Source: a virus (taxonomy: Duplodnaviria; Caudoviricetes). Taken from it: DNA of 64,000 bases. Positions 35,097-59,832 of this stretch are shown here, piece after piece. The DNA is taken from the IMG/VR virus record IMGVR_UViG_3300017700_000409, positions 1-64,000 of that record. The stretch is one strand, 5' to 3'. Each line of letters starts with the position of its first letter. Position 1 is the stretch's first letter. Below the pieces are notes generated by a model that was not told where the DNA came from, did not search any database, and was given only the letters and a program-made list of their open reading frames with translations. The translations under genes and the position numbers were made by a program.

Positions 35097-36086
35097 TTAG
35101 AACTTCCCGTCACCTTGCGCGGCTCTGTCCGCGTCACGGTTCTCGTCAGTGTAGTTCATCCGGACTTCGCCCTTGTTGATGCTATCTTTGAATTGCTCAG
35201 CGCGGTTGACGATATCTTCCCCGCCCGGCAGATCGAAGGTCAGGAAGCTTTCATCATCCGGGTGATCGGCGGGTTTGTAAACCTGAACCTTCCACGACAT
35301 CCAGTCGCCATCGTCATTGCTTTCGGGTTGCGTCGTGAGACGATACGGACGGAAGTACATTTCCGGATTGTAGGTTCCGCTCTCGCCTTCTCCCTTCGGC
35401 TCCTGCCAGCCTTGGATCAAGGAGTTGAGGCGCTTGGCCGCTTTCCAGTTGCTAGAGGTCATCGAGATGATGCACTCATCGGCCTTGCCGCTTTCGGGAT
35501 CAACCAAGAACCCGAAGTAATCGCCTGACTCAACGATCTGCTCCTTGCCGCCGGCAAGAAGGTTGCGGCCCTTCTTGTCCGTCTCGACAACGAGCGCCAT
35601 TGCGCCCTTTTCGTCCTGGCCCCAGTCCTTCACGAAGCCACCGCCATCGCCTTCCTTGCCGCGAAGCTTCCACTGGGTCCAGCGGCGAGTGTACTTCGTG
35701 GGAACGAAAATGATGCCCTCTTCGCCATCGAAAAGATCAGCATTAGCGTTGTTGTAAATCATCCCTTCCGCTGCGCCATCCACAAACTTGTCGCTGCTCT
35801 TAACGCAAGGTTGCGACTTCGCTTGGAGGATAACAACGAACGGGATCAGAAGGTCACGCTGCTCAAAGCCGTGGCCTTTAGTCTTAGAAGCAGCCGCAAG
35901 CATCCGGCTCCTGGCGTCTCCGGTCGTCAGGGCCGTACTTCCCTTGGAGCGGTTAGCAACAGCGCGGCTCCCCGAGGAAGCGTTGCCGGCTTCCGGCTTG
36001 GTCTTGTTGTTCTTCGTTTTGGCTTTGGCTGCTGCGGCCTTCGCGGCTTTATCAGCAGCGGCTTTCTTCGGATCAATTTTTCCCAT
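35097..36086 (-). CDS. Putative ssDNA-binding/annealing protein
   Basis: IPF..ILQ..S, GA.EG.IYN, FVP..Y...W..W..R..GGGF, Y.LTT..E.ND.G.W motifs; acidic C-terminus; high GC3; K/A-rich N-tail. Confidence 0.6.
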   Translation of the reverse strand: MGKIDPKKAAADKAAKAAAAKAKTKNNKTKPEAGNASSGSRAVANRSKGSTALTTGDARSRMLAAASKTKGHGFEQRDLLIPFVVILQAKSQPCVKSSDKFVDGAAEGMIYNNANADLFDGEEGIIFVPTKYTRRWTQWKLRGKEGDGGGFVKDWGQDEKGAMALVVETDKKGRNLLAGGKEQIVESGDYFGFLVDPESGKADECIISMTSSNWKAAKRLNSLIQGWQEPKGEGESGTYNPEMYFRPYRLTTQPESNDDGDWMSWKVQVYKPADHPDDESFLTFDLPGGEDIVNRAEQFKDSINKGEVRMNYTDENRDADRAAQGDGKF

Positions 36087-36091
36087 AGCAC

Positions 36092-36331
36092 TTATTCCCT
36101 TATTAGATTTTCGATGCCTTTTTCAACCGCCAGCCACTCCGGCATTGTGAAGATGTGGCCATCGCGTTTAACAATACTCATCGGTAAAAATAAAATCTCT
36201 TCCTTGGCGACTAGCGCCTGCCTCATTCCTTTCTTGTAGTTAGGATTTTTAACAATGTAGGACGCTGGGCCGTCCTTCTCATATACAAGTTCAATTTCAA
36301 CCAGCCGTTTACTACCGCGCCCCGCCATCAT
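36092..36331 (-). CDS. Hypothetical protein
   Basis: Start moved to 36331; FLP.S, MPEWLA.EKG motif. Confidence 0.55.
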   Translation of the reverse strand: MMAGRGSKRLVEIELVYEKDGPASYIVKNPNYKKGMRQALVAKEEILFLPMSIVKRDGHIFTMPEWLAVEKGIENLIRE

Positions 36332-36953
36332 CACCCCTCTTCGGAAAATCAATGCGAACAAAAACCCCCGTCTCTCCATCGAAGACATCAAAAGGAATAT
36401 CCTTGCCTGCCTTAAGCCGCTCGCGGAAGAACGCCTGGAGCGTTTGCGGGTGGACCCGTTCTTTCAATTCAACAACAGCCTTGCCCCCCTTCTTAAGCTG
36501 CTCAAAGAATTTGCGAGCTAGGGCTGAATCGTTACGGGAGAACTTTCCAATCAGTTCGCACTTCAGAAGGTCCTCCGCCTTCCACTTCTTCAAGAGGCCC
36601 AGTGCAGTTTTGAGCTTCTTCGGTTCCTTGGGCCAAGTCCCGGTGAGGTAGCTATCCAACTCTAAGTGAGCGCCTGAATCTTGATCTGTGAAATCTCGGA
36701 TGCCCGCTTCAGCGAAGACGGCGGGGAGAGTTTTTCTTTGCATCTCCAACATCTTTGACCGGATTTCATCGCAAGAGGTTTCGAGCGCATTCAATTCTCC
36801 TTGCAACGCTTCGTATTCCGCGACGCACCTGTGTACTTGCTTAAGGTCTTTGTTGCTGGCCTTGACCGTCCGCGCGAACATGTCGCGCTTTTGATCCGAC
36901 TTCTTATCCTTCTTCGCGGGGGCTTTTGCCGCCGCTTTCTTCTTTGACGCCAT
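36312..36953 (-). CDS. Conserved replication-region protein
   Basis: Coiled-coil, LP..F.EAGI, VHPQTL.AF..E....G..IP.D.F motif typical of the gene next to this SSB-like family. Confidence 0.65.
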   Translation of the reverse strand: MASKKKAAAKAPAKKDKKSDQKRDMFARTVKASNKDLKQVHRCVAEYEALQGELNALETSCDEIRSKMLEMQRKTLPAVFAEAGIRDFTDQDSGAHLELDSYLTGTWPKEPKKLKTALGLLKKWKAEDLLKCELIGKFSRNDSALARKFFEQLKKGGKAVVELKERVHPQTLQAFFRERLKAGKDIPFDVFDGETGVFVRIDFPKRGDDGGAR

Positions 36954-37847: not shown

Positions 37848-40811
37848 TCATCTAGCGGCAACCCGTTTCTCACTCTTCTTCGGCTTCTGGGCCTCGGGCT
37901 CCTTCTCCTGATCCTCTTGTTCGCCATTTTTACTCTCCAGCAACGCTGTGTTTACTTCTAGCTTGCGAACCTTCTCAACGAACACCATCCCATAGGTCGG
38001 GGCGTATTGTCCGCGAACAAGGTACCAATCCTCATCAATAACCCCGTGCTCAACAATAGGCAGCGCCATCTCTTCGTAGGGTTGCCCCTTCTTAATTCGA
38101 CACATCACGATCCCAGAGTCATCGGCAACCCGGAAGTTCAAGGCGAGCGTCGGCCCAGTCAACACCTTCCCGTTACGCTTTTGAACGCTGATCGTTTCAT
38201 TCGCATCTCGCACGTTCTTAGTCTTTAGCTTCCCGAGGAACACAATATTTTGATCTGGTTCCTGGTCGATGACCTCAAGTATTTTCCAAACATGCCCCCG
38301 TATCCCGAACTTCTCAGGGTCCTCATAGTATTCAGCAAATAAAGTCTCAGCTTCAAAGATGTTATCGAAAGGCGTAACGGGGTTCTCTAGCTTCTTCGCG
38401 AGCCCCGCCGGAAGCTGGTATTGCCTCATCGCAACTTCTTTTACTTTTTTCTTCCCGACTTTTTTGACGATGTTTATTTCAGTGAGTTTTTTATTGCGCC
38501 AATCGATAATCTTTTGGGCGGCATTACCGCCGACACCCCGGATATTCGTAAGCCCTCCATATAGCACACCATTCTTAACAGCCCAGTTGATTTCAGACTT
38601 TTCCGCGTCAACGGGGATATATTTGAAACCTTCTTTGACTAATTCGCGAAGTGTTAGAATGGTACTATCATCCCCCTTGGAGTTACGTAACTGAGCCGCT
38701 GCGTATTCAAGAGGAAACTTGCTTTTAAGAACACAGCACCAGTAGGAGACATTTCCATAAGCCACAGCATGGCTTCGGTTGAAGCCGTAGGAGCCCATCG
38801 TACACATGTGATCCCAAACGTGCTGACTTTCCTTTTCGGTGAGTCCATTCTTCTTCGCTCCTTCCCAAAACTTCCCATAGTAGCCATCGAAGTATTCTTT
38901 GCCGAGGCTCTTGCCCATCGCTTTACGCAGCGCGTTGACTTCTTCCCAGGTCAGATTGCCGATGTCTTTGGCGATCTTCATGACCTGCTCTTGATAGATA
39001 ACAGTGCCGAAGGTCACTTTTGTGATAGGCTCGGCCATTGGGTGGAGGTACTTAACCGCCTTCTTACCCGTCCGGACGTTCACGAAGTCGCCTGCAGACC
39101 CTGAGACTAGCGGCCCGGGGCGCGCGAGAGCGGTTAAAGCGATGATGTCCTCGATGTTCTCCACCTTCATCTGCCGGCACAAGCCCTCGACCGCGCGCCC
39201 CTCGAATTGGAAGATGCCGGTCATGCGGCGCTTGTTGATTACGTCAAAGGCCTTCTTATCGTCTAACGGATAGCTCTGGAGCCAGTGTATGTCCTTGCCT
39301 ACGTGCTCCAAGGTGTCTTGTATCACAGATAGGGTCCGGAGGCCTAGTGCGTCAATCTTTAGAAGATTGATCTTAGCCGCGTCACGCCAGTCGACTTGCG
39401 CCACACCCGTCCGTAGGTCCACCGAACAATAATGGTTAACCGGGTGCTGGGTGATAATAATTCCGGCCGCATGCTGCCCCGTATGGTTGGCGTGGTTCTC
39501 GATTTCTCCCGCGACCTTCATGGCGGGATACTTCTTGATGAACTCGCGCCCCATTGTATTGTCGGTGAACGTATCCATAATACACAGCATCGCACGCGCG
39601 TCGCCCGAGGACCGCTTGAGCATCGCGGCCTTAAGCGCCTCAGTCTCTTTAATCGGCACCTTCAATTCTTTTGCGACATCGTTGATGGCGCTGTCCGACT
39701 TGTACCGGCTTATGGTTCCGATGCGGGCGATGCGGTTACTCCCGTACTTCTCCTTGATGTAATCAAATACAAGCTCGCGCCTATCGTCCTGGAAGTCCAC
39801 ATCAATGTCGGGCAAGTCTGCGCGGCTAACGTCAATGAACCTCTCGAAGAGGAGCCCATAGTGGATAGGGTCAATGTCCGTGATACCTAGAAGGTAGCAA
39901 GTCAAAGAGCCGCAAGAGGAGCCGCGAGCCGGTCCCACCACCATATGTTGCTTCGCCCAGGCAATCATATCCGCCAATACAAAGAAGTAATCTTCAAACT
40001 TCTTATCCGAGATTAGCGTCAACTCGTTATGAAGCCGGTCACCATAAACCCTATTTTTCAAGTCAACCTTGCGGACCTTCGCGCCCTCGATACAAAGCTG
40101 GCGAAGCGTCTTCTTTGATTCAAACTTAACCATCTCCGCTTTCGGAAGCGTGACGTTACACTGATCATATAACTTCCCCGTCTCCTTGATAGCGGCCTCG
40201 GGGCACCAAGGTACATACACCCTCAACTCTTCCTCAGTGAGAATGTGAAAGCCCTCGGCAACGTTCTCCTTGAAGCGCGGGGAAATAATCTCATAGGCCC
40301 CATAATGCTCGGGACGGGGGTAGTAGTTATTTGAACCAGCGAGAGGCTTTAGGCCCCGCTCCATTGCTTGCTTGACGTTATACTCCTGGGCCCCGGGCGT
40401 TACGGCAACGTATGCCTTCGGCGGGGCCTTCCTCCAGTCTGTATCCGGGGCGATGACGATTAGGTTGGCCCAGTCTATCTCGTGTAGACCCAACCTGCTA
40501 AGCCGCCCCTTATCGTCCTCTGTGCTCTTCGTGGTTATCCGGTATATCTCCCGGAGCCCTACGTCATTGCGCGCTAGGAAGCGGTAGAAGTACACAGGCA
40601 CCTTAGTCTCATGCGAGGTGTCCATGACCGGAAGCTCTACGCCTAGGACGGGTTTCACGTTCGCCTTCTTCGCGGCATTGAAGAAGTCAACATGCCCCCA
40701 CGTCCCAGCGCGGTCAGCGATGCCCACTCCACCAGCAGTGAGAACCTTAGAGGTTTGCCCGAAGGTGCTGCGATAGGAATATTCAGTGCGGCAGAATAGG
40801 TTTTTGAACAT
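37848..40811 (-). CDS. dnaE: DNA polymerase III alpha subunit (family C)
   Basis: GPARGS..GSL..Y.LGITDIDP, LLFERF, PDIDVDF, HAAG, KIDALGLRTL, IYQEQ, Y.FNRSHA.AY, C-terminal OB fold; 987 aa. Confidence 0.95.
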   Translation of the reverse strand: MFKNLFCRTEYSYRSTFGQTSKVLTAGGVGIADRAGTWGHVDFFNAAKKANVKPVLGVELPVMDTSHETKVPVYFYRFLARNDVGLREIYRITTKSTEDDKGRLSRLGLHEIDWANLIVIAPDTDWRKAPPKAYVAVTPGAQEYNVKQAMERGLKPLAGSNNYYPRPEHYGAYEIISPRFKENVAEGFHILTEEELRVYVPWCPEAAIKETGKLYDQCNVTLPKAEMVKFESKKTLRQLCIEGAKVRKVDLKNRVYGDRLHNELTLISDKKFEDYFFVLADMIAWAKQHMVVGPARGSSCGSLTCYLLGITDIDPIHYGLLFERFIDVSRADLPDIDVDFQDDRRELVFDYIKEKYGSNRIARIGTISRYKSDSAINDVAKELKVPIKETEALKAAMLKRSSGDARAMLCIMDTFTDNTMGREFIKKYPAMKVAGEIENHANHTGQHAAGIIITQHPVNHYCSVDLRTGVAQVDWRDAAKINLLKIDALGLRTLSVIQDTLEHVGKDIHWLQSYPLDDKKAFDVINKRRMTGIFQFEGRAVEGLCRQMKVENIEDIIALTALARPGPLVSGSAGDFVNVRTGKKAVKYLHPMAEPITKVTFGTVIYQEQVMKIAKDIGNLTWEEVNALRKAMGKSLGKEYFDGYYGKFWEGAKKNGLTEKESQHVWDHMCTMGSYGFNRSHAVAYGNVSYWCCVLKSKFPLEYAAAQLRNSKGDDSTILTLRELVKEGFKYIPVDAEKSEINWAVKNGVLYGGLTNIRGVGGNAAQKIIDWRNKKLTEINIVKKVGKKKVKEVAMRQYQLPAGLAKKLENPVTPFDNIFEAETLFAEYYEDPEKFGIRGHVWKILEVIDQEPDQNIVFLGKLKTKNVRDANETISVQKRNGKVLTGPTLALNFRVADDSGIVMCRIKKGQPYEEMALPIVEHGVIDEDWYLVRGQYAPTYGMVFVEKVRKLEVNTALLESKNGEQEDQEKEPEAQKPKKSEKRVAAR

Positions 40812-41000: not shown

Positions 41001-41330
41001 CTAAGCGAGCAGATGCCAGCCGCGCAAATGTAGTTGCTTTTTCTCGCGTCTATGAAGAATGTAAACGTTCCATTCCTCTGTATCAAAATAAGCTTCACGC
41101 AAAAGATTTATGCCCGCGAGAACGTCTGCGATTTCATCGGCAACCCAAACGCGGTTTACCTTCTGAGTAACCGGCTCACGCTCATCGATCCCTTGTATAA
41201 TACAGCGAGCCAACGCAGATTGAAGCTCTCCAAGCTCCTCGATTAGTTTGCCTAACTGTTTCAGTGTAACCGGGTCCGTAATAGGATGCCACGGGTTTGC
41301 TGGCTTTAGATCATCTACATCAATCGGCAT
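41001..41330 (-). CDS. MazG-like nucleotide pyrophosphohydrolase
   Basis: KLIEELGEL...DEIADV motif (ExxE...ExxD). Confidence 0.75.
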   Translation of the reverse strand: MPIDVDDLKPANPWHPITDPVTLKQLGKLIEELGELQSALARCIIQGIDEREPVTQKVNRVWVADEIADVLAGINLLREAYFDTEEWNVYILHRREKKQLHLRGWHLLA

Positions 41331-41331
41331 C

Positions 41332-41586
41332 TCACCCTCTCTTTTCTCTGTAACCATTTGTTGCGCAAAAATGAGTAAAGTCCAAAGTCTTTAATTTATT
41401 AACATAATCTGCTTTTGACCTCCAAAGAGATGGGCATTTTTCACATGTAACAGAACTATAACGACTTGGTGAAAAACGGTAACCATTGAAGGCGGACCTG
41501 TTGCCGTTTCTTTCGACAACCCACCAGCGTCTTTTTTCTAATGGTTTGTTTCTCTCTTTGCAATTACAAACTGCTCCGCCACTCAT
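41332..41586 (-). CDS. Zn-finger hypothetical protein
   Basis: CNC...SAFNG...S.YS...C..C...WRS.A.YV. Confidence 0.6.
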   Translation of the reverse strand: MSGGAVCNCKERNKPLEKRRWWVVERNGNRSAFNGYRFSPSRYSSVTCEKCPSLWRSKADYVNKLKTLDFTHFCATNGYREKRG

Positions 41587-42443
41587 TTTCTATTCTCCAG
41601 AATATGGAAGTAACAACGAGCGCAGGCAATAACATCAGGTGTGGCGCGGTGAGCCGGGAAGCCTTCGCCAAAGAGATGCTCGTGAAGTTGAGTTAGCGTC
41701 ATTCTATGGCCCTTGATATCCATACTCATCTGAACTGTATCAACAACCGTTAACGGCCAAGGGAACCCTTCCGCCCCAACTCGCTTAAGTTCAAACCCGA
41801 GCATTTGAAAATCAAACCAAGGATTGTGACCGACAGCGCGGCGTACACCCCAGAACAATTCTTTGAGCGTCGGGAGGTAGGTGATGAACTTCGGTTGATC
41901 CTTTAGCATCTCATCTGTGATGCCTGTGATCTTCGGGATATTCGGAACCCTTGAGTTGTTAGGATCACCTTTAGGAAGGAGGAAGCCGGGGTTAATAAGA
42001 AACTCAACATGCTCAACCTCCTTCTTCCCCTCGAATATTGTACCAGAGAACTCAATGACGGACGGCTGAAGGTTTAGGTCAACAGCGCCATTAACAGGAA
42101 GGCCTGTTGTCTCAGTGTCAAACACCAGCGTCAGGTCGGGCTTTGCGATCTGCTTTTGAACCTTCCGTTGTACGCCTATCACCAGCGGTACGTTTGCGTC
42201 GGCAATCGAAGCGGATGCGGAGGATACGGATGCGCCTGTCTTCTCCCGAGCGGCCCCGGGCTTCGCGCCCGCTGTCCCAGAGACGGCGCGATCCTTCCCT
42301 GGCGTTTCCCGGGAAACCAACTCCGATTTCTTCTGCTCCGCGCCTTTCGCCTTTGCGCTCATCTCTTGCTTTTGCTTCTTCACGCTTTTCTTCTTCACCA
42401 CAAGAGCACTCACGCTGCGCCTCTTCAACTGCTGCATCCGCAT
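41583..42443 (-). CDS. DEDDh 3'-5' exonuclease (DnaQ/epsilon-like) with long basic N-terminal extension; start uncertain
   Basis: FDTETTGL, GHN..FD, DT, HRA..DV motifs. Confidence 0.85.
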   Translation of the reverse strand: MRMQQLKRRSVSALVVKKKSVKKQKQEMSAKAKGAEQKKSELVSRETPGKDRAVSGTAGAKPGAAREKTGASVSSASASIADANVPLVIGVQRKVQKQIAKPDLTLVFDTETTGLPVNGAVDLNLQPSVIEFSGTIFEGKKEVEHVEFLINPGFLLPKGDPNNSRVPNIPKITGITDEMLKDQPKFITYLPTLKELFWGVRRAVGHNPWFDFQMLGFELKRVGAEGFPWPLTVVDTVQMSMDIKGHRMTLTQLHEHLFGEGFPAHRATPDVIACARCYFHILENRK

Positions 42444-42792
42444 ATTCCCCGTTCTCGACATTGTCTAGCTCCTGTTGTATTGCCCAGTAGACGATTGAAT
42501 CAATTGCGCTGTCTTCGTGCCCGCCTGTATTAAAGTTCTTACAATAGCGAGAGAGCTTGCTTATGATGTTGAAGAGATTAGATGCCCTCGCAAAATCCCC
42601 TTCCGTCTCTAGTTTCAATCCGGACGGGAACAATACTTTCAGCATAACCCCGAAATATTCATAGTTGTTCCCATACTCGCGGTTTTTCTCTTTGAACATT
42701 TCGATTGCGCATCTCATTACCGCAACGGGATTGTGAATATTCACCTCTTTCATCGCCTTAACAAACTCCGGATCAGGCCGATTCATTTGCAT
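42118..42792 (-). CDS. All-alpha NTP-pyrophosphatase-like protein (DUF6378/NMAD1-type) with charged C-tail
   Basis: KN.EYG, KL.RY, GH.DS..D..VY.A motifs. Confidence 0.6.
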   Translation of the reverse strand: MQMNRPDPEFVKAMKEVNIHNPVAVMRCAIEMFKEKNREYGNNYEYFGVMLKVLFPSGLKLETEGDFARASNLFNIISKLSRYCKNFNTGGHEDSAIDSIVYWAIQQELDNVENGEYADAAVEEAQRECSCGEEEKREEAKARDERKGERRGAEEIGVGFPGNAREGSRRLWDSGREARGRSGEDRRIRILRIRFDCRRKRTAGDRRTTEGSKADRKARPDAGV

Positions 42793-43336
42793 TGATCCTT
42801 ATGCAAGCTTTGAAATCGAAGCCCAGTGCCTCGCGGCTCCCGAAGATAATATTATGGTAGGTGCGCTTGCCGGCAATAATCGGGTTGGTGTGCTTGTAGG
42901 AGGTGTCTTCCCAGACGGGGTGTATATCTCGCTGCCCAAGATGAAAACGCCAATCCTTCCCCTCTTCCTCTGTGCAATGAATTCCGAGATGGCTTATGAA
43001 AGGCATATCCACACCCATGCTTCCGAGTTTTTCATAAAGGCTCGGAGCATAGAGGCCCAGTGGAGATATTCCACGGTTTGAAACAGAGTGGAAATTGTGA
43101 AGCGAAAGGAACTGGATCAACTCCAACTCCTTAAAAGGAATGTCTTGCTCATAGTTATAGAACAGTTTGAACTCAACTTCCTTGGGCTCCGGATAACCGG
43201 CAACAACCGCTCTGCTATAAGCGTGGTCGTGAGACCATGTTGATCCGCCAATCCACTTCATCAAAGTAGATGGGAACCGCGTGGCGATAGCGAGTTGATC
43301 GAAGTCCGCTTCACGCCCAAAAATATTCATCTTCAT
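42773..43336 (-). CDS. VOC/glyoxalase-fold-like protein
   Basis: FDQLAIA (beta1), LELIQF (beta4), SHLGIHC (second repeat); fold inferred by eye. Confidence 0.5.
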   Translation of the reverse strand: MKMNIFGREADFDQLAIATRFPSTLMKWIGGSTWSHDHAYSRAVVAGYPEPKEVEFKLFYNYEQDIPFKELELIQFLSLHNFHSVSNRGISPLGLYAPSLYEKLGSMGVDMPFISHLGIHCTEEEGKDWRFHLGQRDIHPVWEDTSYKHTNPIIAGKRTYHNIIFGSREALGFDFKACIRINANESA

Positions 43337-43470
43337 AGTTCTAAGTCTCCATCGCAATCGCCAATTGAACCTTTTTCATTCGCCTCGCGCTCTTTCTTAG
43401 CGTCCTCGGGCGTCCAACCCGCTTCAATTAATCTTTGCTCAAACTCATCACACGACATGTCCTTACCCAT
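43333..43470 (-). CDS. Hypothetical acidic 45-aa protein (not in ORF track)
   Basis: MGKDMSCDEFEQRLIEAGWTPEDA...; ATGA-coupled. Confidence 0.5.
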   Translation of the reverse strand: MGKDMSCDEFEQRLIEAGWTPEDAKKEREANEKGSIGDCDGDLEL

Positions 43471-43472
43471 CT

Positions 43473-44234
43473 CTAGGCTCCATACGGAATGATACAGCCG
43501 GTTAGATACTTATGCCGCTCTTTGTTCTGGAGGAGGAAGGCAATGAACTCAGCGACTGCCTTCGGGGGTGTCGGAACCCCGTTGGGGATCATGGATGCTT
43601 GCTTAGCTTCCGCCTCTTCCTCTGTCCAGCCCCGGAGCCCCGGGACTTGGGACTTCACTGAATTACTAATCCCCGTCCCCTCTAGGACGTTCGGAGCGAT
43701 AGCGAACACATCGATGCCGTGCCTCGGCTTAAGCTCGCGGGCCATTTGCCGCGTCATCATGTGAACTGCGGCCTTACTCGCGTTGTAGATGTGGGTGCAG
43801 GTCATCGGTGTCCAGGCCGCTGTGGAGCCGATGTTGATAATTGTGCCGCCTTCAGACTTATCGAATGGGCGATACTTGCGGCCGTCCGGTCCTCGGGCCG
43901 ACAGATAGGGGATAGCCGCCCGGGTCATGTTGAAGATGCCCTTGCAGTTTGTATCCATAATCGCATTCCAGTCTTCGTCTTTGGCGTTCTCGATAAAGCT
44001 GAGCGGGGAAACTCCTGCGCAGTTGATGAGCACGTCAATCGAGCGTTTGCGTTTCTCTCCTGGAGGACAGTGATGATCAAGGAACGCTTCGCAATCAATC
44101 GGGCTTCTCACATCATATACAGGATATGAGAAATCCAAAACTTCATGTGTGGTCTGGGCGTTGTCTCCTTGAAGCGCAAATTTAATCTCTTGACCAAGGC
44201 CGCTGGACGCTCCGGTGATAACAATACGACTCAT
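43473..44234 (-). CDS. Short-chain dehydrogenase/reductase (classical SDR)
   Basis: ITGASSGLG, NCAG, NIGS, YNASK catalytic motif. Confidence 0.9.
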   Translation of the reverse strand: MSRIVITGASSGLGQEIKFALQGDNAQTTHEVLDFSYPVYDVRSPIDCEAFLDHHCPPGEKRKRSIDVLINCAGVSPLSFIENAKDEDWNAIMDTNCKGIFNMTRAAIPYLSARGPDGRKYRPFDKSEGGTIINIGSTAAWTPMTCTHIYNASKAAVHMMTRQMARELKPRHGIDVFAIAPNVLEGTGISNSVKSQVPGLRGWTEEEAEAKQASMIPNGVPTPPKAVAEFIAFLLQNKERHKYLTGCIIPYGA

Positions 44235-44692
44235 TTAAAAAACTCCTGTCTGTAGAGAAGGGCGGGGATGCCGTTCATGTTGAATGCGTTCGCAACGTCT
44301 TTCCGGTCTTCGATGATTAGAGAGGCCTTTGCTATGGGTTTGAAATCTCCAAGAAATTGAGCGTACATCTTCATCTTTAGAACAGGCGACGTGTCTTCAT
44401 TCCCGTAAGGACGCATGAAAACGGCATCTTGCGGGATGTTGGCGGCTTTTATCTGCTCAATAGTTTCGTTGCGGTACTCCTCGGAACGGGCCGTAAAGAT
44501 GATGGAGTTGTTATCGAGAGCGAAAGCCCGCGCCACCATTACCATTTGCGGGATAGGAGGGGCTACGAGTTGGAACCTTACAACCGCGTCATAGTCCTTT
44601 TTGGCGTAAGCCTCCTTGGAGACATCCCGGAACTTAAACAAAACACCATCCAGGTCCCAGATGATTGATGTTTTAAATTTTAGCGGCGGCAT
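44231..44692 (-). CDS. HAD-family phosphatase (PNKP-phosphatase-like)
   Basis: Start moved to ATG44692; WDLDGVL, FTAR, MRP, K, IEDR motifs. Confidence 0.85.
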   Translation of the reverse strand: MPPLKFKTSIIWDLDGVLFKFRDVSKEAYAKKDYDAVVRFQLVAPPIPQMVMVARAFALDNNSIIFTARSEEYRNETIEQIKAANIPQDAVFMRPYGNEDTSPVLKMKMYAQFLGDFKPIAKASLIIEDRKDVANAFNMNGIPALLYRQEFFK

Positions 44693-44870
44693 CTTTTGTT
44701 CCTTTCTTACAGGCTTTAGGGTCTGGAGACCAACGGGTGAATACTGACTTTGTATTACAAGATGAAGCGACCCGTTTTTGTTCAAAGGCGCAGTTAACAC
44801 AAACCCGGTGTTCGTCCGTTGGATAGCTCCAGGCGTGCGCTACATATACAGTTGGCTTCCGCGCCATCAC
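44673..44870 (-). CDS. Small Cys-containing hypothetical protein
   Basis: SD GGAGG; H.W...C.NC...C. Confidence 0.5.
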   Translation of the reverse strand: MMARKPTVYVAHAWSYPTDEHRVCVNCAFEQKRVASSCNTKSVFTRWSPDPKACKKGTKDAAAKI

Positions 44871-45045: not shown

Positions 45046-45774
45046 TTAGCCAATCTCCTGACGGGCGCGGTCAATATCCTTGAGCGCATCGACAGCCAGA
45101 GTGGTGTCTTGGTTCCGGAACTTCGCAATGAACGCCTCGACCTTATCGAAGACACCCCGGCCCCTCGGGAATAGGAACTGCTCCGCCCAGGGGTGGACAT
45201 CGAGAATAGCGGAGTGCATAGCCGCTAGAACCTCGCGGTATTCGTCCTGGACCCGTCCGCCCGTCCGCTTCCGGGCTAGCTCCGACATTGTGCGGAGGTT
45301 GAATTTAGCGACAAGGTTGGTGTGGATGTTTAAAGGAAGGACGCCCCGGGCATCTTCCGCCGGCACTCCCATAGCAATCATATCATTATAACCTTCGCGA
45401 ATTTTATCCATTGTGCGCTGATAAATCCCGAATTGTTCTCTCATCATCAGAGGGACAAGAGACTTCGGCACAACGTAAGTGAATGCCGCATTGATAAGCA
45501 TCCGCAACGTTTGTTGAGCATAGGAGCCTTGGCGCGTCCTTACGAGTTGATTGGCGAAGGCGCGGCTCACGTCCGTAATCAAGAAGACATAATCACAGAA
45601 CTCCCAAGAGCTAGGGATTGTGCGGCTCATATACTTGAGGCCTTCGGCCTTCTCCTCTTCCGACATCGCCTGTATCTTCTCGAAAGTATCCTTGCCAAGC
45701 GTCAGCCGGGTTTCCTTTGTGAAGAGAAGAAGGTCAACGGCACCGTGAGTGTAGTTAATCAGTTCAACTTTCAT
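45046..45774 (-). CDS. ThyX-fold flavoprotein with divergent active site
   Basis: SRAFANQLVRTRQGSYAQQTLR, EDARGVLP, N.R, QDEYR align to ThyX; canonical RHRx7S reads RTRx7T. Confidence 0.85.
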   Translation of the reverse strand: MKVELINYTHGAVDLLLFTKETRLTLGKDTFEKIQAMSEEEKAEGLKYMSRTIPSSWEFCDYVFLITDVSRAFANQLVRTRQGSYAQQTLRMLINAAFTYVVPKSLVPLMMREQFGIYQRTMDKIREGYNDMIAMGVPAEDARGVLPLNIHTNLVAKFNLRTMSELARKRTGGRVQDEYREVLAAMHSAILDVHPWAEQFLFPRGRGVFDKVEAFIAKFRNQDTTLAVDALKDIDRARQEIG

Positions 45775-45780
45775 TTCCTA

Positions 45781-46722
45781 TTATCCTTTCTTTACGATTT
45801 CTTTGATCATTCCATAGCGGTCTTTTTGTCCAATCATCTTATCAACAAGTTGGACATCTTGTACAACATCATCAAGGAGTATCTGCCTCCAAGTCGCGAA
45901 ACGCCCCACAGAGTAAATCCCAAACTTCTCAGTCGCATAAAGAATGAATGAGCGGCGCACCTCATCATCGACCGAAAGAAGCTTACCAAACTTCTGGGCC
46001 TTTACTCCTTCAACTTTTACCTGCGCACCTTCGATCCCGAAAACTTGCTCAAGCAACGGGTGTATACGCCACCCGCCCTTATCCACCCCCTCAGGGTCAG
46101 AAACATATTCGAGCGTTAAACGGCTCCCCGTTATCGAAGCCCGATACAAAGCAATATCACTCTCGGGAAAATAAACAGTTTGGTACAAATCAATATCGGG
46201 GCTCTCAATGGTAATCGTCTTTGTCCATATCTTCTTCGCCTCAAACTTCACCTGAGGCTCAACCCCGAGAATGTTAGCTAAAGCCGGCATTGGGATGGTG
46301 CTAATAAGCGGCACAGAGCCATCGCCATGGACTGCAAACTCTTCTAGCCCAGTTCCATAGACAATATTAACACCTTGCGCGAGCCGCTTTAGAAAGTCGG
46401 GAGGTGCGATGTACCGCTCGGCTGGCGCGAGGTTGAGGATGCTGCGGCCTGTCGCGCGCCCCGATACCTTAAGCGAATACTGATTGTTGTGTTGAAGCGT
46501 GCCCGTAGTCCGGAGGCGCTTACCATCCCACAATCCTTTTTGAACAGCCACCTTCTTAAAAGCAATCCCCGTTGCCTCGGCCACTGCGTTAGTTCGGAAG
46601 CGGAGGAGAGCGGCGTGGTTGTCGGGTAAGCTCGGCTGAAGTTCGTGTATGACGGGGGAACGGTTTTTCAGAATGTGTGCGGTTAGCAGGCCAGCCATCC
46701 CGGCCCCGAAGATTTTTATCAT
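45781..46722 (-). CDS. FAD/NAD(P)-dependent oxidoreductase (UDP-galactopyranose-mutase/HemY-like architecture)
   Basis: N-terminal GAGMAGL dinucleotide fold; ISTIP; C-terminal GRFA.W...LDDVV. Confidence 0.75.
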   Translation of the reverse strand: MIKIFGAGMAGLLTAHILKNRSPVIHELQPSLPDNHAALLRFRTNAVAEATGIAFKKVAVQKGLWDGKRLRTTGTLQHNNQYSLKVSGRATGRSILNLAPAERYIAPPDFLKRLAQGVNIVYGTGLEEFAVHGDGSVPLISTIPMPALANILGVEPQVKFEAKKIWTKTITIESPDIDLYQTVYFPESDIALYRASITGSRLTLEYVSDPEGVDKGGWRIHPLLEQVFGIEGAQVKVEGVKAQKFGKLLSVDDEVRRSFILYATEKFGIYSVGRFATWRQILLDDVVQDVQLVDKMIGQKDRYGMIKEIVKKG

Positions 46723-50711: not shown

Positions 50712-51051
50712 CGTTTTCGCTTCCGATAGCTTTTGCTTCACTTTGGATTTTGTCGAGTTCTTCATATTCGTCTTCTTCGACATTTGGAAATTCCTTTGCC
50801 TCTTTCTCGATTGCTTCGGCGCAGGAGAAACACATCATAGGCAAATCGTCCTCGACATGTACCCCGCGCAAATGGTTACCGCAAAAATATCCTTCGCAAG
50901 CGCCATCAGGCCCGACCCCGTGCATCCCGCCGCAAGCGTAGGATAAGCCCCGGTCAATAGTCTCGGTACAACCTGGGTGGTCGCAGAAGGCCTCGATGGC
51001 GTAACCAATCTTGCGGCCCTTGCTGTCCTCTCCGCAGTTAGCCCAGCCCAT
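50680..51051 (-). CDS. Cys/His-rich conserved phage protein
   Basis: GY...A.CDHPGC...IDRGL.Y.CGG.HG....C.GYFC..H. Confidence 0.7.
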   Translation of the reverse strand: MGWANCGEDSKGRKIGYAIEAFCDHPGCTETIDRGLSYACGGMHGVGPDGACEGYFCGNHLRGVHVEDDLPMMCFSCAEAIEKEAKEFPNVEEDEYEELDKIQSEAKAIGSENDETDSDVEAT

Positions 51052-51718
51052 TGATCTTCTCCTTCTTCACCTTCCAGTTTGGGTGGCTATTTGCACCTAG
51101 AAACTTTAAGGCGCTTTCTTCATCTGGAAAACTTTTTGCCTTGTGCTGGTGTGCTGTAGGTGTATCGTTGCCGCAGCTATCTAATCCCTGCCTTATATAC
51201 ACTCCGGTTATTTCGTTTCTGATATAATATCTTTCTTCCTCTCTCGCCATATCAATCCCAATCCAGTGAACGGCGATTATGGGCTGTATCTCCCATTCAC
51301 GCCCCATAGCTTTCCACCTCTCCTCAGAGTCAGAGTGGTTCGGGTAGGGTGCCGCAGCAACGATGCGCTTAGCGTTAGGAAGAGCAATCAACATATCCAC
51401 GCAGAATTTGCAGGGCGACACCGTCACATAGATCGTGTGTACCCGGCTCGGGTCCGTACAATGCGCTAAGGCATTTACCTCGGCATGAATAGCCTTACAT
51501 TCCGTCAACGCAGTCCCGCTCGGGGCGTCCGCTCCCTTACAAGGGAACCCTTCGTTACAGTGAGGCTGGCCCTTAGGCACGCCATTGCGGCCGGTCGAGA
51601 GGATGTGCCCGTTCTCATCTACGAGAACGCACCCGACCGAACGGCGGATACAAGTAGAGCGTTTCGAGGCTACAGCAGCGTGCTCTAGGTTCGTTTGGTC
51701 TTCTGTAGGGCGGTTCAT
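51038..51718 (-). CDS. dCMP deaminase
   Basis: RSTC.R..VG, G.NG.P, HAE.NA, SPC..C; extra C-terminal domain. Confidence 0.9.
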   Translation of the reverse strand: MNRPTEDQTNLEHAAVASKRSTCIRRSVGCVLVDENGHILSTGRNGVPKGQPHCNEGFPCKGADAPSGTALTECKAIHAEVNALAHCTDPSRVHTIYVTVSPCKFCVDMLIALPNAKRIVAAAPYPNHSDSEERWKAMGREWEIQPIIAVHWIGIDMAREEERYYIRNEITGVYIRQGLDSCGNDTPTAHQHKAKSFPDEESALKFLGANSHPNWKVKKEKINGLG

Positions 51719-51906
51719 CTCACAATCCTTTTTGATCCTGATTCCCATTGCTTCTCTAACTCTTTCATAAAGGCATATGGTGGGCTTTGTACTCCTGTTA
51801 TGTATTGTCTAAGCAAATCATCGGAGCAATTAAGGACATCCATAACCTTTGCGAATTTATCCGGATCAGCAACAAGCTTGAGAAGTTGGTTCTGGTGAAC
51901 GCTCAT
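51715..51906 (-). CDS. Hypothetical protein
   Basis: ATGA-coupled on both sides. Confidence 0.55.
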   Translation of the reverse strand: MSVHQNQLLKLVADPDKFAKVMDVLNCSDDLLRQYITGVQSPPYAFMKELEKQWESGSKRIVR

Positions 51907-56141: not shown

Positions 56142-56432
56142 CTATTTGTTTGATGGCTTCTTAGATGTAACAACGTGCTTGGGCGGGTTGGAGGGGATAT
56201 ACACGCCACCTACGCTGCGCTGGTTCGTCCCGGGTATACAACCTCTATCATCCCGGTCCACCTTCTCTTTATCAGTGAAGATGGCTTTAGAAAAAGAAAC
56301 ACCCAGAGAAATACCAATCATAATTCCGAGAGCCCAGAAGATAACAAAGTCATTCTTCCAGATCCCAATGACGATGTACCTATCAACGAAAAAATAAAGC
56401 GACAGGATACAGGCGATGATTAAACCGATCAT
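56142..56432 (-). CDS. Two-TM membrane protein
   Basis: Two hydrophobic runs; ATGA-coupled. Confidence 0.55.
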   Translation of the reverse strand: MIGLIIACILSLYFFVDRYIVIGIWKNDFVIFWALGIMIGISLGVSFSKAIFTDKEKVDRDDRGCIPGTNQRSVGGVYIPSNPPKHVVTSKKPSNK

Positions 56433-56998
56433 TTTGATTGGCTCCCTTTCAAGTGATCGCGAGTGTAGGGAATAAGCTTAGCGGCCCCTCGGATATACAA
56501 GGGGTGCTTGGGTGTGCCGTCTGAGTTGATGGTAAGACAATGGGTCCAGGGTTTAGTTTCCCAGACATACTCAAGAACAACCCCATCTTGCGCGAGGAGC
56601 TTACCGTCCAAGCCCCACCCGAGGATTATAGCATCAGCCTTGCGCAAGGTCTTGGCTAGCTGGTCCCAGTACTCGGGGCCGATGATGTCCTTGTCGTAGC
56701 GAACAGCCCGCAACTCCTCGCGGGAGGAGGTACGATAGGCGAAGAGGTTGGCGACAACGAGACGGTTGGAGCCGTTCATCTTCGCGAAGGAAACGCACCG
56801 GCGAATAGTCGGGTCATCTTCGGTGGCGTCTGCTGTGCTCGGATTGAGCATAATAAAGAGGGTTGTCTTGGGTTTTGGCGCGGGGTCCGTCTTACGGATG
56901 CGCGGGGGCAGAGCCCACTCACGCGTCAACTCATATCGGTAATGCTTGCAATTCGATATGATTGCGCTGGTAGCGGTATATAGATTTTGCTTCGTCAT
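56429..56998 (-). CDS. DUF1643-domain protein
   Basis: YRY.L.R.W, IMLNPSTAD...DDPTI.RC, NLFA.R, WG, HPLY. Confidence 0.85.
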   Translation of the reverse strand: MTKQNLYTATSAIISNCKHYRYELTREWALPPRIRKTDPAPKPKTTLFIMLNPSTADATEDDPTIRRCVSFAKMNGSNRLVVANLFAYRTSSREELRAVRYDKDIIGPEYWDQLAKTLRKADAIILGWGLDGKLLAQDGVVLEYVWETKPWTHCLTINSDGTPKHPLYIRGAAKLIPYTRDHLKGSQSK

Positions 56999-58254: not shown

Positions 58255-59832
58255 TCAAAACTCCTCGGTCCCGCCCTTCTTCGCGGCTGTGCCTGTCGCC
58301 TTCGTGTCCGGGGCCTTGGGCGAAGGCAACTCCCAAAGGTTCATAGGCTTACCCCCGACCTTCTTGACGTTACTCGACCCGCCTTTATCCTGGAGCATAC
58401 GGTAGACCGATTGCCTAGAACGCCCATAGTCAACTCTTCGTTGATCGAGATAGGTAAAAAGGTCCACAGAGCGGAAATAAATAAATTTCCCGTCATTGTG
58501 TGGGCGCCCAGTCCATACTTCATCGAGGGTTTTGGCTTGGGCCTTTTGGAGACAAAACATCTCAATGTGATCCCAGAGCAATCCCTTCGGGCCTGCCTCA
58601 ACGGGGAGTTGTATTATGTCGGCTCCTAGTACCATCTCCCCTAGCGTCTTAATCCACTGGGCTGGCGGAAGGTGGACGGGTATGATGCCTAGCTCGCCTA
58701 GACAATACTTGTTGAAGCTGTCGCGGTTGTAGAGCGTTTCGTTGTCCATGAAGAGCCGCGAGCCCGCAACTTCTAATCCCCACCACACTGGATCGCCAGG
58801 GGACGTTATGTAACGGGTCATGCCGCCTATCTCTAGGACGCCCTTGCGCGTCTCGCCAATTCCATACTCACGCTTGAGGCACTCTGGCTTATTACAAAAG
58901 TCACATATGGGCGCTTCTTCGCATTTGTATTTGTACTCTTTCTTAGAGACTGACTTGCGTATCTCGTTAATCTCGTTCTTAGAGAGAAGAGGCTTGCAAA
59001 ACTCAGCGTTGTATTCGTCCAGCTTGTGTTCCCAGTCACCCGGGAAGCGGGACTTTAGGTACACAGCAACATCAAACATCCCATCGTTGCGCGTCCCGTC
59101 CGGAAAGCCACCATCTTCGTGCAGTATCTGGAGGCAAGGCGGGGCCTCAAAGAGAAGTGTATCACCCTCGGGGCGCTTGAGGGCTTTTGTCTTTACGTTA
59201 TCGAAGGTGACCTTTGACTTTTCCGCGCGGTCGAGGAAGGCCCCTAGTTCGGCTTTCTCGCCGTCTAGGATGCCGTAGCGGTTACAGTCTTTCCCGAATG
59301 CCCCGAAATAGGGCATGTTGATCCAATTGCCGAAGTCCTCGGGGGAGCCGCGCCCACTCTGCTTGGGGAATATCTCGCACCCGCCAAACCCAAGCTCAGC
59401 AGACCAATCGGCTAAACGCTCGCGGACCTTCGCGGCCTCGACTGGCTTTTTGAAGAAGATATAGAGGTGAGCGCCACCCGACTTAGAGCGGCATATCAGC
59501 AGCGGATATTTCTTCGCCTTTATCTTCGCTTCGAGCTTCTTGTGATTGATGTCGTTTTGGTCGATGTCGAGGGCTGACCAAAGTACGCAATTGTCGGCCA
59601 TCAAGGGTATAACACCCATAGCATCAGACGGGGAGGCCCCGAAGAGGTGCTTTATATAGTCCTCTAGGGTTGCGCCGCGCTTGTGGGTGATGGCGCGGCC
59701 TTTGACTTTGCCGTTAGCTTCTTTGGTCTTTATCTCGTAGGTGCCGAAGGCTTCTTCATAGCCCGCGAAGAGAGCGGAGAAGCGCAAAGCCAGCGCGTTC
59801 TGCTCATCCGTCATGGATGGTTTCTTTGCCAT
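58255..59832 (-). CDS. Archaeo-eukaryotic (AEP) primase-polymerase
   Basis: ALDID, RSKSGGAHLY.F, EIFPKQ, GNWINMPY, PPCL, G.RN..MF; C-terminal CEE.PIC.FC....C. Confidence 0.85.
   Translation of the reverse strand: MAKKPSMTDEQNALALRFSALFAGYEEAFGTYEIKTKEANGKVKGRAITHKRGATLEDYIKHLFGASPSDAMGVIPLMADNCVLWSALDIDQNDINHKKLEAKIKAKKYPLLICRSKSGGAHLYIFFKKPVEAAKVRERLADWSAELGFGGCEIFPKQSGRGSPEDFGNWINMPYFGAFGKDCNRYGILDGEKAELGAFLDRAEKSKVTFDNVKTKALKRPEGDTLLFEAPPCLQILHEDGGFPDGTRNDGMFDVAVYLKSRFPGDWEHKLDEYNAEFCKPLLSKNEINEIRKSVSKKEYKYKCEEAPICDFCNKPECLKREYGIGETRKGVLEIGGMTRYITSPGDPVWWGLEVAGSRLFMDNETLYNRDSFNKYCLGELGIIPVHLPPAQWIKTLGEMVLGADIIQLPVEAGPKGLLWDHIEMFCLQKAQAKTLDEVWTGRPHNDGKFIYFRSVDLFTYLDQRRVDYGRSRQSVYRMLQDKGGSSNVKKVGGKPMNLWELPSPKAPDTKATGTAAKKGGTEEF

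Follow-up and report, generated by a model that had tools for sequence, protein, structure and literature searches.

A ThyX-like phage protein with a predicted loss of its folate-side active-site triad and an adjacent flavoprotein gene

The window analysed here is a stretch of 64,000 nucleotides (positions 1 to 64,000 of the IMG/VR virus record IMGVR_UViG_3300017700_000409), that is, 64 kb of a complete phage genome of 73,239 bp with direct terminal repeats whose source is metagenomic only. A near-identity DNA search with 20 kb of the window against cultured phages returned no close relative. On the minus strand lies an intact open reading frame (ORF) of 242 codons that starts with ATG and encodes a protein related to the flavin-dependent thymidylate synthase ThyX, referred to below as the ThyX-like protein. 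The gene directly upstream of it encodes a flavoprotein, and both belong to a longer run of genes with the same orientation (Table 1). A preliminary description made by eye from the sequence proposed that the ThyX-like protein has lost folate-contacting and signature residues while keeping the arginines that bind dUMP and FAD, and that it uses a donor other than methylene-tetrahydrofolate (methylene-THF), such as a larger aldehyde, or carries out a pure redox step.

The ThyX-like protein and its active site

The ThyX-like protein matches the Pfam family Thy1 (PF02511) with an E-value of 8e-31 and 107.7 bits (cut-off 24.8) over profile positions 2-191, and it scores 82.7 bits against the NCBIfam thyX equivalog TIGR02170, below the cut-off of 87.9. 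An AlphaFold model calculated from 24 homologues (pLDDT 89.9) was matched by Foldseek to the T. maritima and M. tuberculosis ThyX structures with TM scores of 0.65-0.78, E ~1e-12 and a probability of 1.00. Identity to the solved T. maritima enzyme is ~20%, and the protein carries a 40-residue helical extension at its C-terminus. These results demonstrate that it is a real member of the ThyX-fold family. No published assay of any member of its subfamily was found in the literature.

Residues are numbered below as in T. maritima ThyX unless the protein's own numbering is stated. In a single-sequence search the solved ThyX proteins aligned only to the C-terminal half of the ThyX-like protein, and for this reason the residue comparison was based on an HMMER alignment of T. 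maritima ThyX with a profile built from the 24 homologues. All statements about the pocket come from this alignment, which reproduced the earlier by-eye alignment (RTR, T-L-R-M, IPSSWEF, VQDEY) residue for residue. The T. maritima segment HETPFEH corresponds to IPSSWEF, with His53 replaced by Ile and Glu54 by Pro; the segment RHRIASYNELSGRY corresponds to RTRQGSYAQQTLRM, with the substitutions H79T, N85A, E86Q, S88T, G89L and Y91M; and RADSHAQWEI corresponds to RTGGRVQDEY, with H178R. In the protein's own numbering, the ThyX signature RHRx7S has become R79-T-R-x7-T89, and the equivalents of Tyr91 and Asn85 are Met92 and Ala86. Residues Q75, R78, R80, S83, Y84, R90, R147, N163, R165, R174, Q180 and E182 are retained, as is Glu58, so that the set that binds dUMP and FAD and polarises the uracil (Q75, R78, R80, R90, R147, R165, R174) is present in full.

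The replaced residues have been assigned specific roles in ThyX catalysis. His53, described as conserved in ThyX (PMC8316439, PMC11940539), forms pi-stacking contacts with the pterin of folate when the enzyme is oxidised and with the isoalloxazine of the reduced flavin (FADH-), and it is held in place by hydrogen bonds from Tyr91 and Asn85 (PMC11940539). Tyr91 and Ser88 have been described as strictly conserved, and the Y91A variant is more than 100-fold slower (PMC8316439); flavin oxidation was 1000-fold slower upon mutation of Tyr91, as cited in PMC11940539. It has been proposed that Tyr91, acidified by Arg90, is the acid that aids the departure of water from the flavin-N5 carbinolamine (PMC8316439, PMC11940539). 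Judged from the alignment, the ThyX-like protein has lost the interacting triad His53-Asn85-Tyr91, which is exactly the folate and methylene-transfer side of the pocket, and has kept the side that binds the nucleotide and FAD and polarises the uracil.

An exhaustive family search of 1.84 billion representatives gave 2,293 matches, 513 of them with E <= 1e-10, and a column census was made from 111 full-length representatives at 50% identity taken from the best 150 matches. Position 53 is I, V or L in 103 of the 111 and His in five, position 85 is Ala in 96, position 91 is V, T, I, A, L or M in 100 and Tyr in seven, and position 178 is Arg in 93. The residues found at position 79 are T (73), H (21), S (7) and N (6), and those at position 88 are S (67), T (26) and A (16). 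The arginines R78, R80, R90, R147, R165 and R174 are each kept in 102-110 representatives (R174 in 107 and R90 in 102). The loss of the folate-stacking His53 and the retention of the dUMP/FAD arginines, both claimed in the preliminary description, were thus confirmed, and the loss extends to Tyr91 and Asn85. The change of the signature to RTR was also confirmed for this protein, but it is not diagnostic of the branch because 21 of the 111 representatives retain His79, many of them with I or V at position 53, and because the homologue P0269 has RTR and is otherwise canonical (His53, Tyr91). The branch is defined instead by the simultaneous absence of His53, Asn85 and Tyr91 in combination with H178R, and the five sequences with both His53 and Tyr91 form a separate clade (support 0.999). 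With about 100 of the 111 representatives affected, the substitutions are fixed in the family and do not represent drift in a single gene.

Among 24 sequences at 50-66% identity, 51 columns are invariant, and the branch is marked by the motifs TIPSSWEF, R-T-R-x2-S-Y-A-Q-Q-T-x-R, EDARGVLPxNIxTN, NLR and RxGGRxQxEY. This conservation points to strong purifying selection on the new motifs, as would be expected of a functional enzyme whose pocket has been altered. The missing signature residues could also be taken to mean that the protein is catalytically dead and has a structural or regulatory role, for example in nucleotide sensing. We consider this extremely doubtful, given that the invariant columns include all of the substrate-binding arginines as well as new polar pocket motifs, that inteins sit in the active-site region, and that the position of the gene and its synteny with enzymes are conserved.

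The inteins (Intein_splicing, Hint) occur in two homologues, P0203 and P0227, near query residue 73 and directly before the Q-x2-R-x-R motif. The longer homologues gave no informative domain fusions; only inteins, a piece resembling Pam3 gp59 and unannotated N-terminal extensions were seen.

The cultured carriers of the gene are chiefly PB1-like Pseudomonas phages and also include Wifcevirus coliphages. A scan of prokaryotes (one genome per species, 185,579 species) for two near-invariant peptides, a motif-based method that is insensitive to diverged members, found 10 loci only, all of them on contigs of metagenome-assembled genomes and none in an isolate genome. ThyX has been described as a frequently transferred gene (PMC2826268); the ThyX-like subfamily, as far as its sequence matches indicate, looks restricted to viruses.

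The partner flavoprotein

The flavoprotein has a GxGxxG dinucleotide-binding fold at its N-terminus, and the related clusters in the ESM Atlas are nearly all of viral origin. It matched no Pfam family (neither GLF nor Amino_oxidase), and comparison of its sequence with the PDB and Pfam gave nothing significant, the profile reaching E ~0.5 against chains of UDP-galactopyranose mutase (UGM). In the structural model (pLDDT 85.6) the protein adopts a compact FAD fold with two domains, of the type found in UGM, protoporphyrinogen oxidase (PPO) and amine oxidases. In a comparison with solved folds (VIA), the highest Z score, 18.5 over 298 residues, was obtained with the T. cruzi UGM (4dsg), followed by PPO at 17.4-17.9 (1sez 17.9), effectively a tie within 1 Z unit, and then by the amine oxidases, the nearest folds together spanning Z scores of 15-18.5. 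Weak and non-significant echoes of eukaryotic UGM motifs are also present (YFPE..YRA[ST]I and GRF..WR). Covalent catalysis through flavin N5 is a classic feature of UGM and ThyX alike.

The pairing of the flavoprotein with the ThyX-like gene is obligate. Among 80 IMG/VR loci with ThyX-like relatives, 62 have more than 2.5 kb of upstream sequence and could be tested, and in all 62 the flavoprotein gene lies upstream on the same strand, with a median offset of -1203 bp. In cultured phages the numbers of records per genus are identical for the two genes (Pseudomonas 292, Escherichia 27, Serratia 9 and Xanthomonas 6), and Gordonia, Microbacterium, Bacillus, Clostridium and Sulfolobus phages are leading genera for the ThyX query only and not for the flavoprotein. 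The pair is also found in PB1 (gp68 and gp61), ECML-117, Vibrio phage VA-RY-3, Ralstonia phage PY059YO380 and the 207-kb Rhizobium phage RHph_Y65, and it is retained in deep relatives at 27-37% identity (L109, L103/L104 and L101, the last on a contig binned as archaeal). At the two loci examined that encode canonical ThyX with His53 and Tyr91 (L107 and L110), the flavoprotein is absent.

In RHph_Y65, the gene gp191 (L086:5458-6420) is annotated in GenBank as a 'polysaccharide deacetylase', yet its product matches the flavoprotein profile at E 2.4e-71. From this match the GenBank label looks like a misannotation.

The gene run and thymidine modification in related phages

The minus-strand run is tightly packed and consists, in order, of the genes for the flavoprotein, the ThyX-like protein, a 59-aa ORF, a HAD-superfamily phosphatase, a short-chain dehydrogenase/reductase (SDR), proteins of 194 and 224 aa, a DnaQ-like exonuclease, a MazG-like protein and DnaE (Table 1). 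Homologues of several of these recur downstream of the ThyX-like gene in the 80 IMG/VR loci: the SDR in 47 (and in ECML-117), DnaE in 54, the 224-aa ORF in 57 and the exonuclease in 60. The HAD phosphatase probably starts at an internal Met near position 44692, and PB1 gp59 combines the HAD domain and that of the 224-aa ORF in a single protein. The 194-aa ORF had no match in Pfam or PHROG and the ESM Atlas was uninformative, and a 'VOC-like' label was not confirmed; a DUF6378/NMAD1 label for the 224-aa ORF was likewise unsupported (DUF6378 E 0.19, not significant). A dCMP deaminase, a possible source of dUMP, is encoded ~5 kb upstream of the first gene of the run.

Table 1. Positions of the ThyX-like gene and of the features around it in the window
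Feature	Positions	Strand	Evidence and remarks
Partner flavoprotein	45781..46722	-	313 aa; phrog_4828 E 9e-68; stops 6 nt before the ThyX-like start codon
ThyX-like protein	45046..45774	-	
HAD-superfamily phosphatase, PNKP phosphatase-domain type	44231..44800	-	DLDGV motif; Pfam HAD_PNKP E 1.5e-5 (below gathering score); phrog_415 E 4.6e-16
Classical SDR, FabG-like	43473..44234	-	Pfam adh_short E 1e-33
194-aa module protein	42773..43357	-	homologue in 34 of 80 loci at the same relative position
224-aa ORF	42118..42792	-	first ~110 residues match the phrog_4889 C-terminal domain (non-HAD half of PB1 gp59), E 2.3e-11
DnaQ-like 3'-5' exonuclease	41583..42461	-	292-aa ORF; FDTETTG motif; PB1 counterpart gp58 annotated 3'-5' exonuclease
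MazG-like nucleoside triphosphate pyrophosphohydrolase	41001..41357	-	phrog_4856 E 7e-13
DnaE-type DNA polymerase III alpha subunit	37848..40811	-	end of the co-oriented run; homologues so annotated in many phages
dCMP deaminase-type zinc deaminase	51038..51748	-	Pfam dCMP_cyt_deam_1 E 1.5e-18

The 224-aa ORF and the exonuclease ORF overlap by 344 nt in different frames (within 41583-42792). Credible domains are limited to the N-terminal ~110 residues of the 224-aa ORF and the C-terminal ~190 of the exonuclease ORF. The N-terminal ~100 residues of the exonuclease ORF are of low complexity, which makes its start uncertain. The overlap may come from one miscalled start, or it could reflect a frameshift or fusion. 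Elsewhere in the window, the early region encodes a DUF1643 protein (56429-56998, minus strand; Pfam E 3.9e-33) and a protein of the archaeo-eukaryotic primase type (AEP-TOTE; 58255-59832, minus strand; E 2.3e-12). Two proteins encoded at 35097-36953 on the minus strand match families of the cyanophage Pam3, namely Pam3_Gp34 (E 1.4e-42) and the gp33-like DUF7307, and these matches hint at the wider kinship of the phage.

A study by Yee, Lee et al. determined that in the Pbunavirus phages F8 and 14-1 about 25% of the thymidine, in the TG context, is replaced by nucleosides of 362 Da (F8) and 390 Da (14-1), which were interpreted as derivatives of a tetrose sugar alcohol and of a cyclised aldopentose, respectively; according to the same study the F8 and 14-1 genomes contain no previously implicated modification gene (PMC12191111). 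The same TG assignment is given in a 2026 preprint, where the study is cited as Nat Microbiol (2026). We found no paper in the literature that assigns biosynthetic genes to the Pbunavirus thymidine mark, and a preprint on phage transposon mutagenesis makes no mention of a ThyX gene. PB1-like phages are the main cultured carriers of the gene pair (PB1 gp61 and gp68). Wifcevirus, a second group of carriers, is resistant to all tested restriction-modification systems though without any known genome protection (PMC11990801). A ThyA-family hydroxymethylase (PF00303) gave no match in six carrier genomes, namely the complete genome of the window phage, PB1, ECML-117, VA-RY-3, PY059YO380 and RHph_Y65, and therefore the ThyX-like protein is the only recognisable pyrimidine-C5 carbon-transfer enzyme in them.

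The gene contexts of two relatives lend further circumstantial weight to a possible link with DNA modification. A relative without His53 (P0257, on the metagenome contigs L105:170-6755 and L106) lies in an apparent modification cluster that has no flavoprotein and that encodes a methyltransferase, Nmad2, a nucleoside 2-deoxyribosyltransferase (NDT), an HD protein (YfbR-like), an SDR, DUF2284, a dNK-like kinase, a class III aminotransferase and a phosphoribosyltransferase; by its gene content this looks like a separate nucleotide hypermodification pathway. At L109:4186-10509 the order is flavoprotein, ThyX-like protein (Ile53, with Tyr91 kept), proteins of 221 and 141 aa, a GT2 glycosyltransferase and DnaE. 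A glycosyltransferase was rejected as a regular member of the module, since GT2 was found in L109 only among ~100 loci.

The context dependence of the Pbunavirus mark bears on a second alternative, in which carbon transfer has been lost and the protein is limited to flavin redox chemistry on a pyrimidine, or acts on DNA instead of a mononucleotide. Examples would be reduction or oxidation at an exocyclic C5 carbon placed by another enzyme, or dehydrogenation of the thymine methyl group followed by capture of a nucleophile. A reaction at the level of DNA or thymine would suit the TG specificity and the canonical T that remains, and the lost residues (Tyr91, His53 and Asn85, with Ser88 variable) are those of the carbinolamine, methylene-transfer and folate steps while the binders of flavin and uracil stay. 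In solved ThyX the active sites are buried between the subunits of a tetramer, an arrangement that does not fit well with DNA as a substrate, and to our knowledge there is no precedent for hydride abstraction from the thymine methyl group by FAD. The kept C5-activating residues R174 and R90 also argue that nucleophilic C5 chemistry persists. On this evidence, the redox-only or DNA-level alternative is unlikely.

Proposed chemistry and comparison with known systems

The explanation that we favour, with about even confidence, is that the ThyX-like protein is a partner-dependent ThyX with non-canonical C5 chemistry on dUMP and without the usual folate site. We infer from the retained residues that it would be an active flavoenzyme that binds FAD and a uracil nucleotide, and activation of the uracil C5 would still be used because R174 and R90 are kept. 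The carbon would not be taken from methylene-THF in the usual way, and the electrophile would arrive by a route without folate stacking or the Tyr91-assisted carbinolamine step. The protein is proposed to work as a functional pair with the UGM-fold flavoprotein, which would supply or prepare the donor or else provide reducing equivalents, and the product would be a C5-substituted dUMP formed in the nucleotide pool. The co-oriented HAD phosphatase, the SDR and the uncharacterised proteins of the run would adjust the side chain or the nucleotide pool, and the modified nucleotide would be used by the DnaE and DnaQ that the phage encodes. Two outcomes can be distinguished under this partner-dependent explanation. 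A non-methyl product, with a hydroxymethyl-level or sugar-derived C5 substituent, that serves as a precursor for thymidine hypermodification is a real possibility that we put forward tentatively; synthesis of dTMP by a folate-independent two-protein route seems improbable.

The putative non-folate donor, such as a larger aldehyde, or the pure redox step suggested in the preliminary description gains circumstantial support from several features: the obligate flavoprotein neighbour, the apparently virus-only spread, the thyX score below cut-off, the relatives without His53 in modification clusters and the sugar-type thymidine of PB1-like phages. Its conclusion that the protein is not an ordinary thymidylate synthase is plausible. 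The virus-restricted look of the subfamily, the pairing with the flavoprotein at 62 of 62 loci and the status of the gene as the sole thymidylate synthase-family gene in six genomes are new here.

Several observations weigh against the partner-dependent explanation, and most of them suit an ordinary divergent ThyX that uses methylene-THF and NAD(P)H to convert dUMP to dTMP, with other pocket residues in place of His53 and Tyr91 and with the flavoprotein adjacent by shared descent only. Membership in Thy1 and the fold are clear, every nucleotide- and FAD-binding arginine is retained, H79T alone is seen in the otherwise canonical P0269, and Trp57, Gln87/Gln88 and His74 (present in 81 of the 111 members; Asn in the ThyX-like protein) are candidate compensating residues. 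No second thymidylate synthase, either ThyA or canonical ThyX, was found in the six carrier genomes, where the ThyX-like gene is thus the only gene of a thymidylate synthase family; together with the dCMP deaminase in the window and the dUTPase and ribonucleotide reductase genes near the ThyX-like gene in RHph_Y65, this is the ordinary setting of a phage dTMP synthase. The pairing may partly reflect shared descent in a Gram-negative branch of the DnaE replication module, as there are DnaE phages of actinobacteria without the pair: more than 1,000 phage records contain a DnaE-type polymerase, several hundred of them from actinophages (Streptomyces, Gordonia, Mycobacterium), and these genera are not among the leading ones for the flavoprotein. 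The insensitivity of the motif scan counts on the same side. The link to DNA modification is also affected, because the Pbunavirus mark is restricted to TG and to ~25% of T, and an enzyme of the nucleotide pool alone cannot explain such a mark with canonical T elsewhere. The extra DNA-level, sequence-specific step that the mark requires was not found, a DNA-level enzyme would be needed for it in any case, and the modification data among carriers come from Pbunavirus only.

An ordinary ThyX is nevertheless hard to square with other results. Tyr91 is described as strictly conserved and His53 as conserved, mutation of Tyr91 costs 100- to 1000-fold in rate, and the whole triad is gone in ~100 representative clusters. 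It would leave unexplained the adjacency of the flavoprotein at 62 of 62 loci and its absence at the two canonical loci examined, and the motif scan placed the subfamily in zero prokaryotic isolate genomes. The score under the equivalog cut-off also speaks against it. We regard an ordinary divergent ThyX as a serious alternative, if somewhat doubtful.

A more specific version of the partner-dependent explanation, which we consider quite improbable, is a reductive C5-alkylation of dUMP by the ThyX-like and UGM-fold pair in which a sugar-level donor replaces the one-carbon unit. A donor such as ribose-5-phosphate or phosphoribosyl pyrophosphate would be caught as a flavin-N5 iminium, as UGM captures the C1 of its sugar, and a step by the HAD phosphatase would lead to a 5-(polyhydroxyalkyl)-dUMP. 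The sum dU + pentose - O gives 362.33 Da, the mass in F8, and dU + hexose - H2O gives 390.35 Da, the mass in 14-1; both are isomeric with an O-linked reading (5-hydroxymethyldeoxyuridine plus a tetritol or pentose), so mass cannot choose between C-linked and O-linked structures. If true, this version would extend the ThyX fold to a new class of reaction and would supply the first step still missing in Pbunavirus hypermodification.

ThyX is a textbook enzyme and an antibacterial target, and the papers on its mechanism hold His53, Ser88 and Tyr91 to be conserved or strictly conserved. The existence of a very large, apparently virus-only branch that lacks those residues and is always accompanied by a second flavoprotein means either that ThyX chemistry has a quite different way of working or that a new reaction has taken over the fold. 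The PB1-like carriers are among the most used therapeutic phages against Pseudomonas aeruginosa, and PB1 gp61 and gp68 are two concrete candidates for the Pbunavirus thymidine-modification pathway. Additionally, several hundred database entries bear the name 'thymidylate synthase ThyX' on the basis of homology while not matching the signature of that family.

Among known systems, T. maritima ThyX (TM0449; PDB 1O26, 4GT9 and 8REN) has the fold, the domain family and the set of retained residues in common with the ThyX-like protein. In the latter His53, His79, Asn85, Glu86, Gly89, Tyr91 and His178 are replaced and Ser88 is Thr; it also differs in its C-terminal extension, its sub-cut-off equivalog score and its obligate flavoprotein neighbour. 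The proteins of Pbunavirus (PB1 gp61 among them) and Wifcevirus that carry the annotation 'FAD-dependent thymidylate synthase' belong to the same subfamily, and the order of their module (flavoprotein, ThyX-like protein, HAD-type protein, exonuclease, DnaE) matches that of the window. They are at most ~40% identical to the window protein, PB1 gp61 is longer (305 aa), and five small ORFs lie between gp61 and the flavoprotein gp68 of PB1 in place of the 6 nt in the window. PB1-like phages have a TG-specific hypermodified thymidine (PMC12191111). Hypermodification of thymidine in M6, ViI and phiW-14 involves a ThyA-type dUMP hydroxymethylase and 5-HMUDK; the six carrier genomes differ from these phages in having no PF00303 match. 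The flavoprotein itself has the two-domain FAD fold in common with UGM and with PPO and the amine oxidases, but at 313 aa it is shorter than these enzymes (360-510 aa).

The Bacillus phage SP-15 (KT624200) offers a parallel by analogy only. Its DNA contains 5-(4,5-dihydroxypentyl)uracil, which is synthesised at the nucleotide level and takes up label from ribose (PMC5977210), and the product of the sugar-donor version would be a hydroxylated analogue of this base. SP-15 has, in addition to a canonical-type ThyX (gp9), a second and very divergent Thy1 protein, gp130, that reaches only 26.2 bits against Pfam and abuts the SDR gp129; the authors' guess, made without a test, was that gp130 is a hydroxymethyluridylate synthase (PMC5977210). 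Membership of gp130 in the branch of the window protein was rejected (hhalign probability 1.5% against the window family), and a search of a 49-kb stretch of SP-15 for the flavoprotein gave no homologue. The NDT gp127, gp129 and gp130 are clustered in SP-15 (L102:43730-46911), and a trio of NDT, SDR and Thy1-like genes recurs in L105.

PolB from the Streptomyces polyoxin pathway is a neofunctionalised ThyX paralogue that C5-methylates UMP (PMC5954106). It is likened to the ThyX-like protein here by description and not by sequence, and it differs in being a cellular protein, in its folate-dependent methylation and in that no flavoprotein partner is reported for it in PMC5954106. PolB is nonetheless a precedent for recruitment of the ThyX fold to C5 chemistry outside dTMP synthesis.

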